The position numbers were made by a program. A DNA stretch of 64,000 bases from Escherichia coli (lineage in GTDB: Bacteria; Pseudomonadota; Gammaproteobacteria; Enterobacterales; Enterobacteriaceae), in NCBI RefSeq assembly GCF_030013595.1, contig NZ_CP122768.1; one strand, 5' to 3'. Every line of letters begins with the position of its first letter. The first letter of the stretch is position 1. Shown here piece after piece: positions 12,001 through 21,000 of the stretch.

Positions 12001-15000
12001 GCACAACAGCGCCGCAGGTGGATTTCAGTTTGCGGAACCAGATGGTGTCAATTGTTTTACCTGTGCTGTCCATTAATACACAGCCAGCATCGAGATCGAT
12101 TGAGTCGTTGCCTCCAAACAATCCTCCAAGAAGACCTTTTTTCTTAACCGGATCCCAACCGAGACCGAAATGAAGCTGGCTTAATGCAGATGATTCTTTG
12201 CTGAGTGATACCGTCTGGTTCTTAACTAATGAAACCATGTTTTATTCCTTAAAATGGTAATGACCGAGACAATCAAAGGTATATTTAGTAACTGACGAAG
12301 AAAATCATATCATGATGAAGTTCTCTGACAAGGGAAATTTTTGTGGTTTTCTGTAAAAACACAAAAAGAAATCCTTTTCAGGGTGTTAGTTTTTCTATTT
12401 TTAATTTAAATATCAATGTGTTATAAGGAATCCAAAAAACACTGACGCACTCCATAACCACAGGAGTTATTAATCATATTATGATTGACATGTAGCTTAG
12501 ACACTCATAGACTCACTTCTCAATCATAAATTTGCATGGCGTTCCGGATAATTAAAAAAAATGAACAAGAAAATTTGGTTTATGGAAGGTTTATCCTCCC
12601 AGCGAGATATTATTCAGGGGGTAAAATCATTTGCACAAAAAAATAATTTTGCCATTACCGTTTTTGCCTCCCACCGTAACGAAAGAAATGAAATCCTTTC
12701 CGTTGCCGATTATTCTTTGACTGAACCTGAAGATCCTCAAAAACGTCTTCAGTTTATCCAGGAAACCATTCAGACCTACGGCATCCACCATATTCATACT
12801 GGCCGTAACAGCCAGTGGTTTGAAGAACACCGTTCAGCCATTGAACCGACCGGTGCCACCCTTACTACCGGTGCAACGGGCGTCGACTGGTTAACTCTGG
12901 CTGACGAAAAAGTTACTTTTGCTCAGTTTATGGAGCAAAAGGGTCTCCCGGTCGTACCATCCTGGCGGGTGAATACGCTGGCAGAATTAAAGACACACCT
13001 CGCGGCCCCGCCGTTCACTGACAGCCCGGTATGCGTGAAGCCGGTGACGGGTATCTATGGCATGGGATTCTGGCGCTTTGATGACAGTGCTTCGCCTATG
13101 GCCGTCTTTAATCATCCCGAACATCGTCTGGTCAGTCCGCAACAGTATATTGCAGCAGCATCAGCTGCTGAGTCGTTTAAACCCCTTGTTTTGATGCCGT
13201 ACCTGCCAGGCCCGGAATTTTCCGTCGATATCCTCGCGGATAAGGGCGAAATACTCGCAGCCGTGGGACGCCGTAAGGAAGGGGCTATCCAGTATCTGGT
13301 AAACGAAGGAAGCGCCTGGGAACTGGCGTGTGACTGCGCCCGTGTTATGAAGGCCGACGGGCTGGTGAATGTTCAGACGCGAAACGATGTGAATGGCAAC
13401 CCGGTGCTGCTTGAAACCAACATGCGTCCGTCAGGGGGGGTGGGTTATACCCTTCACAGCGGTGTGAACCTTCCTGGGTTATTTGCTGCCTTTAAGCTCG
13501 GTCTGATGTCTGAAGATATGGTACGCCAGAGCGCTAAAAACACCTTTTCTCCGGTTGCGGTGAGATCCATTACGGATGTAATTGCATACCCGGAATCACT
13601 CTCTAACCTTCTGAATTAAGGCGTATTTATGTCTGATATCCTCGAAGATATGATTTATCGCCGTACCCTCTCATGCGGTACGATTCAGGTAACCCGTGAC
13701 CAGGGTGAAGTTTCGCTCGATGACCTGTTTGACATCGCTGAAAGACGTAACCCGAAACGCGCCTTTCTGTTTGTCAGCAAAGTACTCGGCAGGCACATTC
13801 CCGTGCCACCCTCAGTCATGCGGCAGGCCTACAGACAGCTTGCCAGCCAGTTCCCCTCGACACTGACAGGACCCGTACTGTTTATCGGTATGGCTGAAAC
13901 CGCCGTTGGGCTTGGGGCCGGTGTATTTGATGAAGTGCGCCACCAGCATCGTGAATCTGTCTATCTGACCTCTACCCGTCACCCGGTTGATGGCACGTTG
14001 CTTTGCGAGTTCAAGGAAGAACACAGCCACGCCACCGATCATCTGATCTATCTGCCAGATGATGAAGAGAAAAGACGTCGTGTTACCAACGCACGAACGC
14101 TGGTTTTGATTGATGACGAGGCAACCACCGGTAATACCTTTATTAACCTGCTTTCTGCCCTGCGTAATACCGGCAAGCTTCAACATATTGAACAGGTTAT
14201 CGCCGTAACGCTGACCGACTGGAGTGGCAATGCCCTGTCGGAGCGCACCCCCTTGCCCGTCACTTCGGTTTCGCTTGTAAGCGGTCAGTGGGGATGGACC
14301 CCATTACCTGATGCACCTGTCCCGGACATGCCGAAAGTCAACGTAACTTCACGAGGAGAATGGGACATCCAGGGGAAACAGTCATGGGGCCGACTGGGGA
14401 TGCTCGCACCTGCGGCCGATCTCGGCCATGAGGTCTCCGTCCACAAGGGGGAACGTATTCTGGTTCTCGGGACCGGGGAATTCGTCTGGGAGCCGTTCCT
14501 GCTTGCTGAACGGCTCGAAGCTGCCGGAGCACAGGCATTTTATGGATCGACCACCCGCTCCCCTGTCGCCGTTGGTTATGCCATTGAGTCCGCCATTTCC
14601 TTTACGGATAACTACGGGCTGGGCATCCCCAATTTTGTCTATAACGTCGCCCACCAGCAGTTTGACCGCATTCTTGTGTGTACTGAGACACCCGCAGAAA
14701 GTATTGACACGCAGCTTCTTAAAGCGCTGGCTGAGGTTGCGCCCGTCGTGGAGATTGTTACCTATGAATAAACCCGTTGTTCTGAGCGACCTTGACGACA
14801 CGCTCTTTCAGACCCGTCGTAAAATGGTGGACGAGCTGGCCCTGGAGCCATTCCGTACCGGTGCCGTTGATCGCACCCTGAATCCACGAAGCTTTATGAC
14901 GGAAGAACAGTCCATGTTGGTGGACTGGCTCCTGGAGCAGGCTGAACTCATACCCGTTACCGCACGGGGAACTGAAGAAATCAGCCGCGTACGGATCCCT

Positions 15001-18000: not shown

Positions 18001-21000
18001 CCTTGTATTGCCGGAAAAGCCTGCCGAGAGCGAAGGCATTAGTTTTTTGGGTAAATGGTTTGAATCGGAATCAGCTAAAGCTGAGCGCCACGCCGAAAAT
18101 CTTCGCCGGTGGCAGCAGGAGCTGATTGATGTGGAGCGTGAGAATACCCTTCGACAGCACCGGTACCAGCAACAACGGACGGCCTGGGCCGAACAGTATG
18201 CAAACTGGAAGTTTGAAGCTGAAGAACATGAAAAACGGCTCGCCACGGCTCAGGCAGATGCCCGGCAGCAGTTCCGGACAGACGCCGCGTTTTTCGAATC
18301 ATACCTGGCGGGTGTGCTGGCAGAAACTGAATGGCCGCGTGAAACGCTTGTTGCATTTGAAGTAAAGCCGGAGCTATCAGCAGTCCTGCTGGACGTTGAT
18401 TTAGCTGAGATTGAAGATTTCCCTGATAAGATTTACGGCGTTAATGCCCGGGGAACGGAGCTGACGGAAAAAGCCATGACGCAAAAAGCCGTACGCGAAA
18501 ACTATGCCCACCACGTCCATGGCTGCTTGTTCCGCCTGGTCGGTATCGTTTTACATACGCTACCTTTCGACAACGTGATTGTGTCAGGCTTTACGCAACG
18601 GGTCAGTAAGCGGACCGGCTATCTGGAGGATGAGTATATCCTGTCCTGCAAATGCACTCGCAGCCAGATGTCGTCAGTAAATTTTGCAGGCATAAAACAC
18701 ATTGATCCGGTTGAAGCGTTAGGCGATCAACCGGTTATTCGAAAGATGAGCAGTACCTTCATTTTTCAGCCTATTGAACCACTAACCCTTTAAGCAGGCT
18801 AAATCTTACGATGCAATTAAATACCAGACAGGCCCGGATTTTTAAGCTTGCCAACTTACTGGGCACCGGCAAGCCCGTTTCCGCTGCCGACATTATAACC
18901 AGTCTGGAATGCTCTGAGCCGACATTAACCCGGGCCCTCAAAGAGCTACGCGAGTCATATTCTGCGGAGATCAAATACAGCAAGGCAGGTCATTCCTATC
19001 ATCTCGTTAATCCGGGCCAGTTGGATAAAAAGACCCTCCGCCGGATGAATGAAGCGCTCGCACAGAATGCTGAACTGAAAACCGGTGAGTCCACAGGGAA
19101 GGTCGTACTCGATAAGGATAAAAAAACAGCCGTGTCATTATCGCTACGCATGCGGATTCTAAGAAAAATTGACCGTCTGGCTGCGCTGAGTGACTCGACC
19201 CGAAGTGAAGCGGTAGAGAAGCTGGCTCTGCACTCCGTTGATGAACTGATAAAAGAATACAGCGCTAAAAAGTCCTGACGCTAAATCTCAGACCGGGGTG
19301 AAAACTCCGGTTTTGTCATATTTCACCTCTGTATTGGCGTGATGCAAAATGGCATCTGAATCGATCATGGTTTGGCATCCATTTCCGATCACAGTTTGGC
19401 ATCACAATCGATCACGATTTGGCATGCTTCCGCTCATTGATTGGCATCCTGGTGTCGTTACGGGGAAGTCATCTTCACAGGGATCTTCAGTCAGTTAGCA
19501 TTACCGACATCCATTCACCAACTTACCGGAGATAATCAATGTCAAAACCCCGATGGACGCTTGATCAGAAAAAACATCACGTTGCCGCATGGCGCGCCAG
19601 CGGCCTTACCCGTGAACAGTACTGTGAACTTTACGACATTCCGTTTAAATCCCTGCGCCAGTGGCCGCAGGATGTCGCAAAAGCCGAAAAACGAGCCAGA
19701 GCACCAGAAATTATTCCTGTTTCAGTATCTGGCTCTTCCGGAATGACTGATGGCAGACCATTGTCGGATGAGCCTGTCACTCTCTTCCTGCCCGGTGGTA
19801 TCCGGATGTGCTGCCAGCCTTCTCAGTTAACCGATGTTTTCCGGGCTCTTCGCCATGCTGACGCCTGATAACGTATTCCTGGTCGTAAAACCCGTCGATA
19901 TGCGCCGGGGTATCGACACACTGACACAGTACGTCCAGAACGAACTTAACGCTGCATGGCATGACGGTGCTGCTTTTGTCTTCACCAATAAAGTCCGCTC
20001 CCGCATAAAAGTTCTCCGGTGGGACAAACATGGCGTATGGCTGTGTACCCGACGACTGCACCGGGGAAGCTTCCGCTGGCCCCGGAAAGGTGATGCCACA
20101 TGGCATCTCACACAGGATGAGTTTCACTGGCTGGTCTTTGGGGTTGACTGGCAACAGGTGAAAGGGCATGACCTGGCAAAATGGGTATACCAGGAAGAAC
20201 CCGAAGATGCTCAGAGCAACGCAATAACTCAATGAAATATAATGAATATCCATGCGTGATGTCATATAATCCACCGCATGGATATCTCGCTTCTCAGTAC
20301 CACCAGTGACCCTGAACAGCTTCGCGCTCTGGCAATTGCCATGGTGCAAAAAGTCATGGCTGAGAATGCAGAACTTCAGAACCGTATCCGCATCCTGGAA
20401 GAGCAGATGAAGCTCGCACGCCAGCAGCGTTTCGGTAAAAAATGCGAATCGCTGGCCGGGATGCAGCGTTCCCTGTTCGAAGAGGATGTTGACGCGGATA
20501 TCGCAGAAATCTCGGCGCATCTGGACAAACTGCTTCCTCAGACCGGGGACGAAGAAAAAACAACAACACGTCCTGTTCGTAAGCCCTTGCCTTCACCTCT
20601 TCCCCGTGCTGAAAAGGTTATCCCGCCAGCTGAGGAACGTTGTCCTGACTGTGATGCCCCCCTGCACTTCATTCGCGATGAAGTCAGCGAGAAGCTGGAA
20701 TATATTCCGGCACAGGTCGTGGTCAACCGCTATATCCGCCCGCAGTACAGCTGTCCCTGCTGTGAGAAAGTGTTCAGCGGAAAAATGCCGGCACATATCC
20801 TTCCGAAAAGTGCTGTTGAGCCATCGGTCATCGCACAGGTTGTCATCAGCAAATATACCGACCATCTGCCCCTGTATCGCCAGCAGCACATTTTCTCCCG
20901 AATGGGGGTGGAGCTCCCCGTCAGTACAATGGCGGATATGGTCGGTGTTGCTGGCGCTGCACTGGCCCCGCTGGCAAAATTGTTACGCCACGAGCTTCTG

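Follow-up and report, generated by a model that had tools for sequence, protein, structure and literature searches.

The closest described system to the locus studied here is the Ter-associated module of Anantharaman, Iyer and Aravind (Mol Biosyst 2012), for which, as quoted by later papers, a nucleoside-like metabolite was put forward from comparative genomics. The accessible papers published from 2021 to 2025 call the cluster only putative or predicted and credit the nucleoside idea to the 2012 analysis, in agreement with the initial annotation, which had attributed the proposal to comparative genomics and left the product undefined. In the accessible literature no product, substrate, transcript map or mutant phenotype was found for the five enzymes. 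It has been reported that terZ-F alone gives tellurite resistance in E. coli K-12 and therefore the module is dispensable for that phenotype. TerW, for its part, is reported to regulate the ter operon and to guard the cell against the lethal effect of terZA. Judged by Pfam families and by those later quotations, the present locus has every defining domain of the 2012 module and the five-enzyme configuration beside terZABCDE, and the same product hypothesis applies to it. In E. coli O157:H7 the seven-gene array, adjoining the tellurite-resistance (ter) genes, is a well-known and already annotated cluster; it is real, ordinary and described earlier, and it restates published knowledge rather than constituting a new finding.

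The array and its conserved core

The window, that is the whole stretch of 64,000 nucleotides of E. coli DNA that was analysed, is 100% identical to E. coli O157:H7 chromosomes and represents their SpLE1/OI-43/48 island. Seven plus-strand genes divergent from terZ at 12561-19278 are all in frame and exact to the base as initially annotated (Table 1). They are real genes and not chance ORFs because six of them have Pfam matches with E-values from 8e-21 to 1e-112, the RefSeq annotation has the identical seven CDS, and a collection with one genome per species has orthologues at no fewer than 550 loci. Among 5,426 complete E. coli genomes about 950 carry the same array, as do about 1,250 plasmids; the core was counted in 955 E. 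coli genomes and terZ-E in 1,005.

The junctions, in gene order, are +9, -8, +1, -1, +10 and +17 nt, and the genes form a densely packed plus-strand unit bounded by a predicted promoter and a terminator hairpin. Both junctions that had been singled out earlier are present in the sequence, namely the 8-nt overlap of the PRTase and HAD genes (ATGAATAA) and the 1-nt overlap cTGATGa between StiP and the HpcH-like lyase gene. The first overlap is 8 or 11 nt in 71 of 75 species, the second is 1 nt in 60 of 77 species and 4 nt in a further 8, and overlaps are still present in metagenomic contigs at 37-38% identity. Since the overlaps are conserved among species the tight junctions are not accidental, and the claim of translational coupling is upheld. 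The order PRTase_2>HAD>StiP>C-C lyase is kept in 73 of 80 species loci, and it is only these four genes that make up the conserved, tightly coupled core. The ATP-grasp gene is optional and usually stands in front; it is found in 59 of the 80 loci, and its absence is genuine in Xenorhabdus, P. mirabilis, Shewanella and Photobacterium. Of the seven genes no more than four or five thus make up the conserved enzymatic core. DUF4236 has an N-terminal domain that turns up here and there in phages; just 3 of the 80 loci have the gene between those for the lyase and TerW, and it is a sporadic accessory passenger outside the core. TerW is a winged-HTH DNA-binding regulator. The description of the whole array as biosynthetic therefore stands for the five enzyme genes, whose domains match those of the Ter module, but not for DUF4236 and terW.

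Table 1. Coordinates of the features in the window.
Feature	Position	Strand	Evidence or remark
terZ-terA-terB-terC-terD-terE partner operon	7688..12238	-	ORFs; RefSeq names TerD-family/TerB/TerC/TerD; divergent from the biosynthetic operon
terZ	11657-12238	-	322-bp intergenic region to the ATP-grasp gene
Predicted sigma-70 promoter of terZ	12304..12331	-	-35 TTGTCA 12331-12326, 16-nt spacer, extended -10 TG-TATGAT 12309-12304; consensus scan 10/12
Palindrome 1, ATCATATCATGAT	12304..12316	.	Covers -10 of terZ promoter; exact copy; candidate TerW operator
Palindrome 2, ATCATATTATGAT	12473..12485	.	Abuts -35 of biosynthetic-operon promoter; candidate TerW operator
Predicted sigma-70 promoter of seven-gene unit	12485..12513	+	TTGACA, 17 nt, TAGACT; consensus scan 10/12
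ATP-grasp ligase (ATPgrasp_Ter, PF15632), 352 aa	12561..13619	+	Pfam 8e-37
Phosphoribosyltransferase PRTase_2 (PF15609) with C-terminal TRSP (PF12500), 380 aa	13629..14771	+	
HAD-superfamily (IIB-type) phosphatase, 257 aa	14764..15537	+	NCBIfam HAD-IIB/MPGP matches weak, below curated cut-offs
StiP (PF11202, formerly PRTase_1) with PELOTA_1 (PF15608), 359 aa	15539..16618	+	Pfam 4e-87 and 2e-24
TIM-barrel C-C bond lyase (C-C_Bond_Lyase, PF15617), CitE/malyl-CoA-lyase-like, 318 aa	16618..17574	+	Pfam 1e-112
DUF4236 protein, 402 aa	17585..18793	+	Pfam DUF4236 spans residues 1-55 only; PHROG 38135 at 8e-40
terW, 155 aa, last gene of unit	18811..19278	+	Pfam HTH_11/HVO_A0261_N about 1e-3; PADLOC WYL-regulator HTH 3e-5
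Intrinsic-terminator-like hairpin and T-run, end of transcription unit	19290..19313	+	10-bp stem; minimum free energy -14.9 kcal/mol, z = -3.2

Of the 80 species loci, 75 have the module together with ter genes, as the annotation would have it, and they do so in two arrangements: 39 loci have a module divergent from terZ, and in 34 (Pseudomonas, Burkholderia) the module precedes terZ in the same direction and in many cases encloses a TerD/vWA gene. It is only through this gene neighbourhood that the module appears tied to the Ter proteins. The island is a mosaic with many IS elements, which, together with the sufficiency of terZ-F for tellurite resistance, would suit ordinary salvage or metabolic genes hitch-hiking beside ter on mobile elements. 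However, the linkage spans Enterobacterales, Pseudomonas, Burkholderia, Shewanella and Moraxellaceae in both architectures and with the nested gene, the Pfam families are specific to the ter context, and in the NCBIfam search none of the seven proteins reached the curated cut-off of any family, and hitch-hiking is hardly credible.

Predicted enzymes, StiP and the proposed product

The core proteins and the ATP-grasp protein all appear to retain catalytic-type motifs. The ATP-grasp profile matches carbamoyl-phosphate-synthetase-type ATP-grasp proteins in the PDB at about 1e-8, with K160, E285 and N287 invariant, and its predicted role is an optional tailoring or precursor step. PRTase_2 has a canonical PRPP loop, and its predicted reaction is the coupling of a base-like nucleophile with PRPP. 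Which base is not predictable; sequence profiles lean toward OPRT/PyrR and the fold comparison toward APRT/XPRT. The HAD enzyme, predicted to dephosphorylate the nucleotide, keeps motifs I-IV (D9-x-D11-x-T13, T66, K198 and G222-D223-x3-D227) in at least 95% of 53 orthologues. The lyase profile matches citrate lyase beta and acyl-CoA lyase in the PDB (2e-10 for 3qll), and the acidic, Arg and IHP residues of this CitE-like lyase are conserved, the invariant ones including E43, D44, R83, R85, K109, E134, R164, D169 and H240-P241. Fusion proteins join ATP-grasp to PRTase_2 (P0176) and PRTase_2 to HAD (P0122, P0135 and P0188).

The 359-aa protein, which had been listed as unknown, belongs to a named family, StiP, with an added PELOTA_1 domain. 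Its AF2 model (pLDDT 91.8) has HGPRT-type PRTases as all of its top-50 Foldseek PDB matches, and the PELOTA part resembles L7Ae weakly (E 0.008). What the model suggests is a second PRTase-fold protein with an L7Ae-like C-terminal domain and not a protease fold. Its invariant loop, VDGWTGKG, is without the acidic pair of the PRPP loop, and StiP may possibly be non-catalytic. The RefSeq/Pfam name would make it a cysteine protease that processes Ter or envelope proteins, with the cluster partly proteolytic, and Cys189, Cys229, His122 and His145 are indeed highly conserved, the two cysteines in 43 of 48 sequences. This is very unlikely, however, as 5 of the 48 orthologues have Ala, Ser or other residues in place of both cysteines, the residues that never vary belong to the nucleotide-binding loop, and there is not one protease fold among the top-50 matches. 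A possible but tentative reading is that StiP is not a pathway enzyme but a nucleotide-sensing RNA-binding regulator, a PyrR/PurR-like sensor carrying an L7Ae/Pelota-type domain, which would make the module a small-molecule-controlled post-transcriptional switch. The PRTase fold, the non-canonical loop and the L7Ae match agree with it, PurR and PyrR are among the structural or profile neighbours of the PRTase domains, and a 2025 paper credits 'RNA-dependent regulation' to the 2012 Ter analysis. Against it, the L7Ae match is weak, an RNA target is not known, no Rfam element was found in 12000-19700, and StiP is translationally coupled between two enzymes as a pathway subunit would be. A regulatory StiP would be compatible with the main explanation.

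That main explanation, to which we give a probability of roughly 0.6, is the known reading of this locus as a Ter-associated biosynthetic module with the pathway and regulation outlined here, and the product is probably a nucleoside-like small molecule. PRTase_2 would convert a base or base-like nucleophile and PRPP to a ribonucleoside 5'-monophosphate, from which the HAD enzyme would strip the phosphate to give a free nucleoside. The C-C lyase, by Mg-dependent aldol or Claisen-type chemistry, and the ATP-grasp ligase where present, by forming an amide bond at the expense of ATP, would build or decorate the aglycone, and StiP would carry out a second ribosyl-phosphate transfer or bind nucleotide or RNA. 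The product would be a diffusible nucleoside-like ligand that, in responses to stress, phage and colicin, acts together with the membrane complex of TerD, TerB and TerC. The ATP-grasp, HAD and lyase genes are each absent from some lineages and therefore there is possibly more than one product. The product could instead be a weapon, a toxic nucleoside or nucleotide analogue serving as antiviral chain terminator or antimetabolite or as interbacterial toxin, with Ter providing export or self-protection and not sensing. We consider this unlikely, since the unit is without a nucleoside-specific transporter or resistance gene, the insertions by which the phage and colicin phenotypes were mapped lay in ter genes and not in the module, and no PADLOC model recognises the array genes.

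Proposed regulation by TerW

In scans of the whole region predicted promoters and terminators showed no enrichment over shuffles. The TTGACA and TAGACT of the seven-gene promoter are conserved in the intergenic alignment, and at the terZ promoter a CAAG/TGACAAG island is conserved across 18 Enterobacterales intergenic regions. Two conserved palindromes (ATCATAnnATGAT) are present, one per divergent promoter and 169 bp apart, and palindrome 1 is an invariant island within otherwise diverged intergenic regions. Palindrome 2 abuts TTGACA in 28 of 33 species, and at least two sites are present in 31 of 32 terW-positive loci as against 1 of 6 terW-negative loci. The pair are candidate TerW operators, and we infer that TerW would bind both; it is proposed to repress terZ from site 1, given that this covers the -10, and to autoregulate its own operon from site 2, given the position of that site directly against the -35. 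TerW possibly has a C-terminal ribbon-helix-helix, to judge from weak Pfam matches to RHH_1 and HicB-like families.

Comparison with known systems

The ter locus of IncHI2 plasmids and of K. pneumoniae pK2044 is described as terZABCDEF, 'seven uncharacterized ORFs' and terWXY. The seven genes of IncHI2 copies are 98.7-99.3% identical in DNA to those of the O157 island with the order unchanged, and the divergent intergenic region differs from one plasmid copy at 6 of 322 positions. In IncHI2 plasmids terW is followed by a 468-bp gap and then by terY1-terX-terY2-terY3(TerY-C)-PP2C-kinase, whereas in the O157 island the plasmid homology ends 64 bp past terW, IS66-family elements replace those genes, and terF is cut down to a 128-aa N-terminal fragment. 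The terminator hairpin sequence is also in IncHI2 plasmid DNA, up to the start of the IS66 element.

In some free-nucleoside natural-product pathways, for example that of psicofuranine/angustmycin, a PRTase-family enzyme acts first and a phosphatase follows. PDB entry 7f06 is labelled adenine phosphopsicosyltransferase; the identity is 11%, and the array is without sugar-modifying or pyrophosphokinase genes and has as partners a second PRTase-fold protein, a CitE-like lyase and an ATP-grasp ligase. This likeness is one of working in a similar way and not of membership. With PyrR and PurR, which are nucleotide- or PRPP-sensing regulators, StiP shares the PRTase fold, to which it adds an RNA-binding-type domain; a sequence relationship beyond the fold is not detectable, and a regulatory role drawn from this analogy would be speculative. 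A. baylyi StiP, compared by family and not by sequence, is of the same Pfam family PF11202 and has the same tellurite-resistance link, but, as cited by a later paper, it has been reported as a protease (Reichert et al. 2013) whereas a PRTase fold is predicted for the present StiP. Finally, from the 2012 module, as it is quoted, there is no essential difference: the present copy adds DUF4236 and ends with terW.

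The seven-gene unit and its conserved core

The seven plus-strand reading frames that the initial annotation had placed at 12561-19278 were all found, in frame, at exactly those positions, and the RefSeq annotation gives the same seven CDS. As had been described, the unit is divergent from terZ, with terZABCDE running the opposite way from 12238 and an intergenic region of 322 bp; the PRTase and HAD genes overlap by 8 nt (ATGAATAA), and the TGATG junction into the HpcH-like lyase gene is a 1-nt overlap with the gene for the 359-aa protein. The other junctions are +9 nt between the ATP-grasp and PRTase genes, +1 between the HAD gene and the 359-aa gene, and +10 and +17 before and after the DUF4236 gene. 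The region 12000-19500 was 100% identical over 7.5 kb to E. coli O157:H7 chromosomes, and both DNA identity and gene content place it in the SpLE1/OI-43/48 (ter-type 1) island of EHEC O157:H7, described as having ter, iha and ure genes and IS66/IS3 elements on a prophage-like element with an integrase (PMC8193136). Of 5,426 complete E. coli genomes, 953 have the 7.5-kb stretch with a coverage of at least 80%. It also occurs in 1,249 plasmids, chiefly conjugative ones of the IncHI2 type from Escherichia, Salmonella, Enterobacter and Klebsiella, and thus the locus is very common. In the E. coli genomes the core (PRTase_2, HAD, StiP, lyase) was found in 955 and terZ-E in 1,005.

Positions and matches of the features discussed in the text
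Feature	Position	Strand	Match or description
iha	4276-6366		
terF fragment	6880-7266	-	
Palindrome copy 1, 13 bp	12304-12316		ATCATATCATGAT; covers -10 of terZ promoter
terZ promoter, predicted	12331-12304	-	extended -10 (scan)
Palindrome copy 2, 13 bp	12473-12485		ATCATATTATGAT; abuts -35 of biosynthetic promoter
Promoter of the unit, predicted	12485-12513	+	TTGACA, 17 nt, TAGACT (scan)
ATP-grasp		+	Pfam ATPgrasp_Ter PF15632, 8e-37
PRTase, 380 aa		+	Pfam PRTase_2 PF15609, 2.2e-62; C-terminal TRSP PF12500, 1.8e-22
359-aa protein (StiP)	15539-16618	+	Pfam StiP PF11202, 4e-87; PELOTA_1 PF15608, 2e-24
HpcH-like lyase		+	Pfam C-C_Bond_Lyase PF15617 (TIM-barrel), 1e-112
DUF4236 gene	17585-18793	+	Pfam DUF4236, 8e-21, N-terminal 55 residues only
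Terminator hairpin after terW, predicted	19290-19313	+	10-bp stem and T-run
IS66-family elements	~19343-24360		
794-aa ORF	44338-46722	-	

PRTase_2 relatives formed 1,833 clusters at 50% identity, and a search with a 12-sequence alignment confirmed them in at least 553 stretches of a one-genome-per-species collection; the counts out of 80 that follow are for the best 80 of these loci. The string PRTase_2, HAD, StiP and lyase was whole in 73 of the 80, and among the other seven the HAD gene was not detectable in four and contig ends cut three. ATP-grasp was present in 59 of the 80 and missing in Xenorhabdus, Proteus mirabilis, Shewanella and Photobacterium. That the search had overlooked it there was rejected because the terZ-to-PRTase gap in these loci is just 270-590 bp, and therefore its absence is genuine. 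TerW was found in 34 of the 80, all of them Enterobacterales except Shewanella sairae and one Rheinheimera MAG. DUF4236 lies between the lyase gene and terW in just 3 of the 80 and was for this reason rejected as a core member; its 55-residue N-terminal domain is scattered over unrelated phages of Clostridium, Microcystis, Pasteurella, Acinetobacter and Klebsiella, and the middle and C-terminal parts of the protein matched no known family.

The junctions are conserved as well. The PRTase/HAD overlap is 8 or 11 nt in 71 of 75 species, the HAD/StiP junction is -8 in 43 loci and +1 in 11, and the StiP/lyase junction is -1 in 60 of 77. Even in metagenomic relatives of 37-38% identity the order PRTase_2, HAD, StiP is kept with the same -8/+1 junctions, the lyase being missing in one. 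The translational coupling that had been claimed therefore stands, since the overlaps and abutments are kept across species. On gene content, these comparisons also show that the seven genes are made up of a conserved three-to-five-enzyme core with a sporadic passenger and a lineage-specific regulator.

The ter genes are linked to the module, that is the core with its usual ATP-grasp, in 75 of the 80 best loci. Divergence from terZ is seen in 39 of them. In 34, from Pseudomonas and Burkholderia, the module is upstream of terZABCDE and co-directional with it, and a TerD/vWA gene is often nested in the module, after ATP-grasp. In the Pseudomonas and Burkholderia loci L048-L084 the module and terZABCDE make up one co-directional array with a TerD- or vWA-TerF-like gene between ATP-grasp and PRTase_2, and both terW and the palindrome of the E. 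coli intergenic region are absent. Fusion proteins of ATP-grasp with PRTase_2 and of PRTase_2 with HAD are known from sequence. A Logan contig that looks phage-like (L004, SRR22387765) has at 5781-14950 TerD, TerD-vWA (TerF-like) and AIM24, and then ATP-grasp::PRTase_2 as one 715-aa protein, HAD, StiP and C-C lyase, in the same gene order as in E. coli. The Acinetobacter jumbo phage ME3 also has a homologue, as already noted in the literature. One could argue that the module is merely hitch-hiking next to ter; however, the conserved order, junctions, fusions and ter linkage support an enzyme set that is probably functionally integrated and tied to the Ter proteins.

The enzymes and the fold of StiP

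The Pfam families to which the genes were assigned are specific to this setting. The HAD gene gave no significant match in the Pfam search and its NCBIfam HAD-IIB matches were weak, under the curated cut-offs; HAD motifs I-IV were all kept in at least 95% of 53 orthologues. Single-sequence PDB searches with ATP-grasp, PRTase_2, StiP and TerW gave no significant match, and for none of the proteins was a close solved relative found in the PDB by sequence. The remote links came from profiles built on the orthologues. With these the lyase was connected to citrate-lyase-beta/acyl-CoA-lyase enzymes (2e-10), ATP-grasp to carbamoyl-phosphate-synthetase-type domains (~1e-8), and the PRPP loop of PRTase_2, D-D-E-A-T-T-G with the acidic pair present, to OPRT/PyrR (0.01). 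Predicting the base from the fold neighbours was rejected, because these are APRT/XPRT whereas the profile gives OPRT/PyrR, and with the two in disagreement the base used by PRTase_2 is not predictable. No defence-system model of PADLOC-DB v2 was matched, the marginal matches being PRTase_III-A (1e-3) and, for TerW, a WYL-regulator HTH (3e-5), and the five enzymes had no informative match in PADLOC and PHROGs.

The 359-aa protein had been called unknown; its reading frame is as claimed but by Pfam it belongs to the StiP/PRTase_1-PELOTA family. The "cysteine protease" label that RefSeq and Pfam give to StiP goes back to a report on A. baylyi that is cited elsewhere. In the structure model of StiP (pLDDT 91.8) the top 50 Foldseek PDB matches were all hypoxanthine-guanine PRTases and none was a protease. 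A cysteine protease would have a protease fold and an invariant Cys-His pair, whereas the predicted fold here is that of a PRTase only, and the two best-conserved cysteines, Cys189 and Cys229, are kept in 43 of 48 orthologues and replaced in 5 of 48. The protease label is thus not supported by the modelled fold. The nucleotide loop of StiP, V-D-G-W-T-G-K-G, is invariant and has a single Asp, and so StiP departs from type I PRTases, in which two adjacent acidic residues are followed by T-G-x-T. Since its loop has no acidic pair, StiP may not be a canonical PRTase despite the PRTase fold; by the model it resembles a diverged PRTase or a paralogue that binds nucleotides. Another explanation is that StiP is an RNA-binding sensor, and here the profile of its C-terminus led to L7Ae (0.008). 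Some O157:H7 strains carry natural IS1203 knock-outs of stiP.

The divergent promoters and candidate TerW operators

The intergenic region has two exact copies of the palindrome ATCATAnnATGAT, 169 bp apart, and no other exact copy exists in the 64 kb; when up to one mismatch is allowed, the 64 kb have 5 matches vs 0.49 expected. When 18 Enterobacterales intergenic regions were aligned, the two palindrome sites and the -35 elements were essentially the sole conserved islands, and the displayed rows also largely retain the plus-strand -10 (TAGACT). In the divergent regions the palindrome has a density of 3.2 per kb, compared to 0.008 per kb in the rest of the loci. Two or more sites are present in 31 of 32 terW-positive loci but in only 1 of 6 terW-negative loci, and the second site abuts TTGACA in 28 of 33. 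At its N-terminus TerW has a winged HTH, and its C-terminus may, as judged from the sequence, be a ribbon-helix-helix; according to published statements TerW regulates the ter operon and guards against terZA lethality. Because of their promoter positions, their co-occurrence with terW and this published regulation, the palindromes are good candidates for a pair of TerW operators, through which TerW would repress terZ and autoregulate the operon that ends in terW.

The promoter-like site of the unit, which is conserved, and the predicted hairpin after terW lie on either side of the seven genes; the hairpin has a free energy of -14.9 kcal/mol (z = -3.2). Comparison of 12000-19700 with Rfam gave no riboswitch in the leader and no other RNA element at E<=1, and no transcript data for the unit were found in the literature, which was searched with guessed EDL933 and Sakai locus tags. 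In other species the lyase-to-terW gap is 2-396 nt, and therefore terW may have its own promoter there.

The proposed product and comparison with known systems

The nucleoside-like product that the initial annotation had ascribed to comparative genomics is the hypothesis of Anantharaman et al. (2012) as relayed by later papers, and in keeping with its statement that the product is biochemically undefined, papers up to 2025 still treat it as predicted. The domain make-up, the motifs of catalytic type and their conservation, the gene order and coupling, the fusions and the ter linkage are observed here, whereas the pathway is inferred. In this scheme PRTase_2 would join a base-like nucleophile to PRPP, HAD would take off the 5'-phosphate, and the CitE-like lyase with the optional ATP-grasp ligase would build or decorate the aglycone. 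StiP would catalyze a second ribosyl-phosphate transfer or would sense a nucleotide or RNA, and the product would be nucleoside-like and diffusible and would serve the TerD/TerB/TerC complex as a ligand. We lean modestly towards this PRPP-to-nucleoside mechanism in outline. A weak point is that terZ-F alone confers tellurite resistance, and a rival explanation is that the product is a nucleoside that is directly toxic or antiviral. No enzyme, product or mutant data for the module were found in the literature, and looking for recent anti-phage studies of Ter with PRTase brought up no further papers.

A fuller proposal is that the operon makes a new ribonucleoside-type signal or antiviral whose synthesis TerW controls at the two operators and whose target is the TerD/TerB/TerC membrane complex, StiP being a nucleotide-sensing RNA-binding component and not a protease; taken as a whole we regard this as rather unlikely. 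If true, this would account for the resistance to tellurite and colicins, the inhibition of phages and the effect on gut fitness that are associated with ter loci. The resistance and phage-inhibition phenotypes have been described since at least 1995. Pathogens commonly have ter loci: of the complete E. coli genomes about 18% carry one, EHEC O157:H7 included, and they occur on IncHI2 resistance plasmids and on K. pneumoniae plasmids, where an association with clinical infection and with fitness in the gut has been found. For learning what ter really does, the biosynthetic operon offers the most tractable approach, as has been recognised since 2012. The cluster is already annotated, was described in 2012 as putatively biosynthetic and, in the papers that relay this, is repeatedly cited so up to 2025, and it would not surprise a specialist. 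The present analysis adds four points only: it marks out the core, gives a PRTase fold for the StiP model, proposes a candidate pair of TerW operators and points to the natural stiP::IS1203 strains.

Compared to IncHI2 plasmids, the homology runs through the hairpin and ends 64 bp after terW, where IS66-family DNA begins. The plasmids go on, after a 468-bp gap, with terY1-terX-terY2-terY3-PP2C-kinase, whereas none of these six genes is in the window; in their place there are IS66-family elements, one nested in another. At the other end, what is left of terF encodes 128 aa from the N-terminus (TerD domain), with 89% identity to residues 1-108 of the plasmid TerF, and iha comes after it; the reference strain PV15-279 carries an extra ISEc20 copy at the terF fragment that the window does not have. 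PV15-279 has at 27436-28141, which would be about 1 base lower in the window, between its IS66 block and urease genes, a RefSeq Hok/Gef toxin gene and a gene for a type B (zinc-independent) L31 ribosomal protein paralogue. Farther along, the 794-aa ORF resembles, by sub-threshold NCBIfam matches, a primase-polymerase in its N-terminal region and a superfamily-2 helicase in another, and RefSeq names its counterpart in a related strain 'TOTE conflict system archaeo-eukaryotic primase domain-containing protein'.

The likeness to the Ter-associated biosynthetic module (Anantharaman et al. 2012) extends to each of its parts. PRTase_2 is fused to a C-terminal TRSP, the HAD phosphatase gene is directly downstream of the PRTase gene (adjacent or overlapping in 71 of 75 species), the second PRTase-like protein (PRTase_1/StiP) is fused to PELOTA_1, ATPgrasp_Ter and C-C_Bond_Lyase are present as in the five-enzyme version, and the linkage to TerD/TerB/TerC is seen in the divergence from terZABCDE. 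The overlapping and abutting stop and start codons, which are conserved, are likewise those of a translationally coupled operon. We therefore conclude, with a probability of about 97%, that this locus is the known Ter biosynthetic module.
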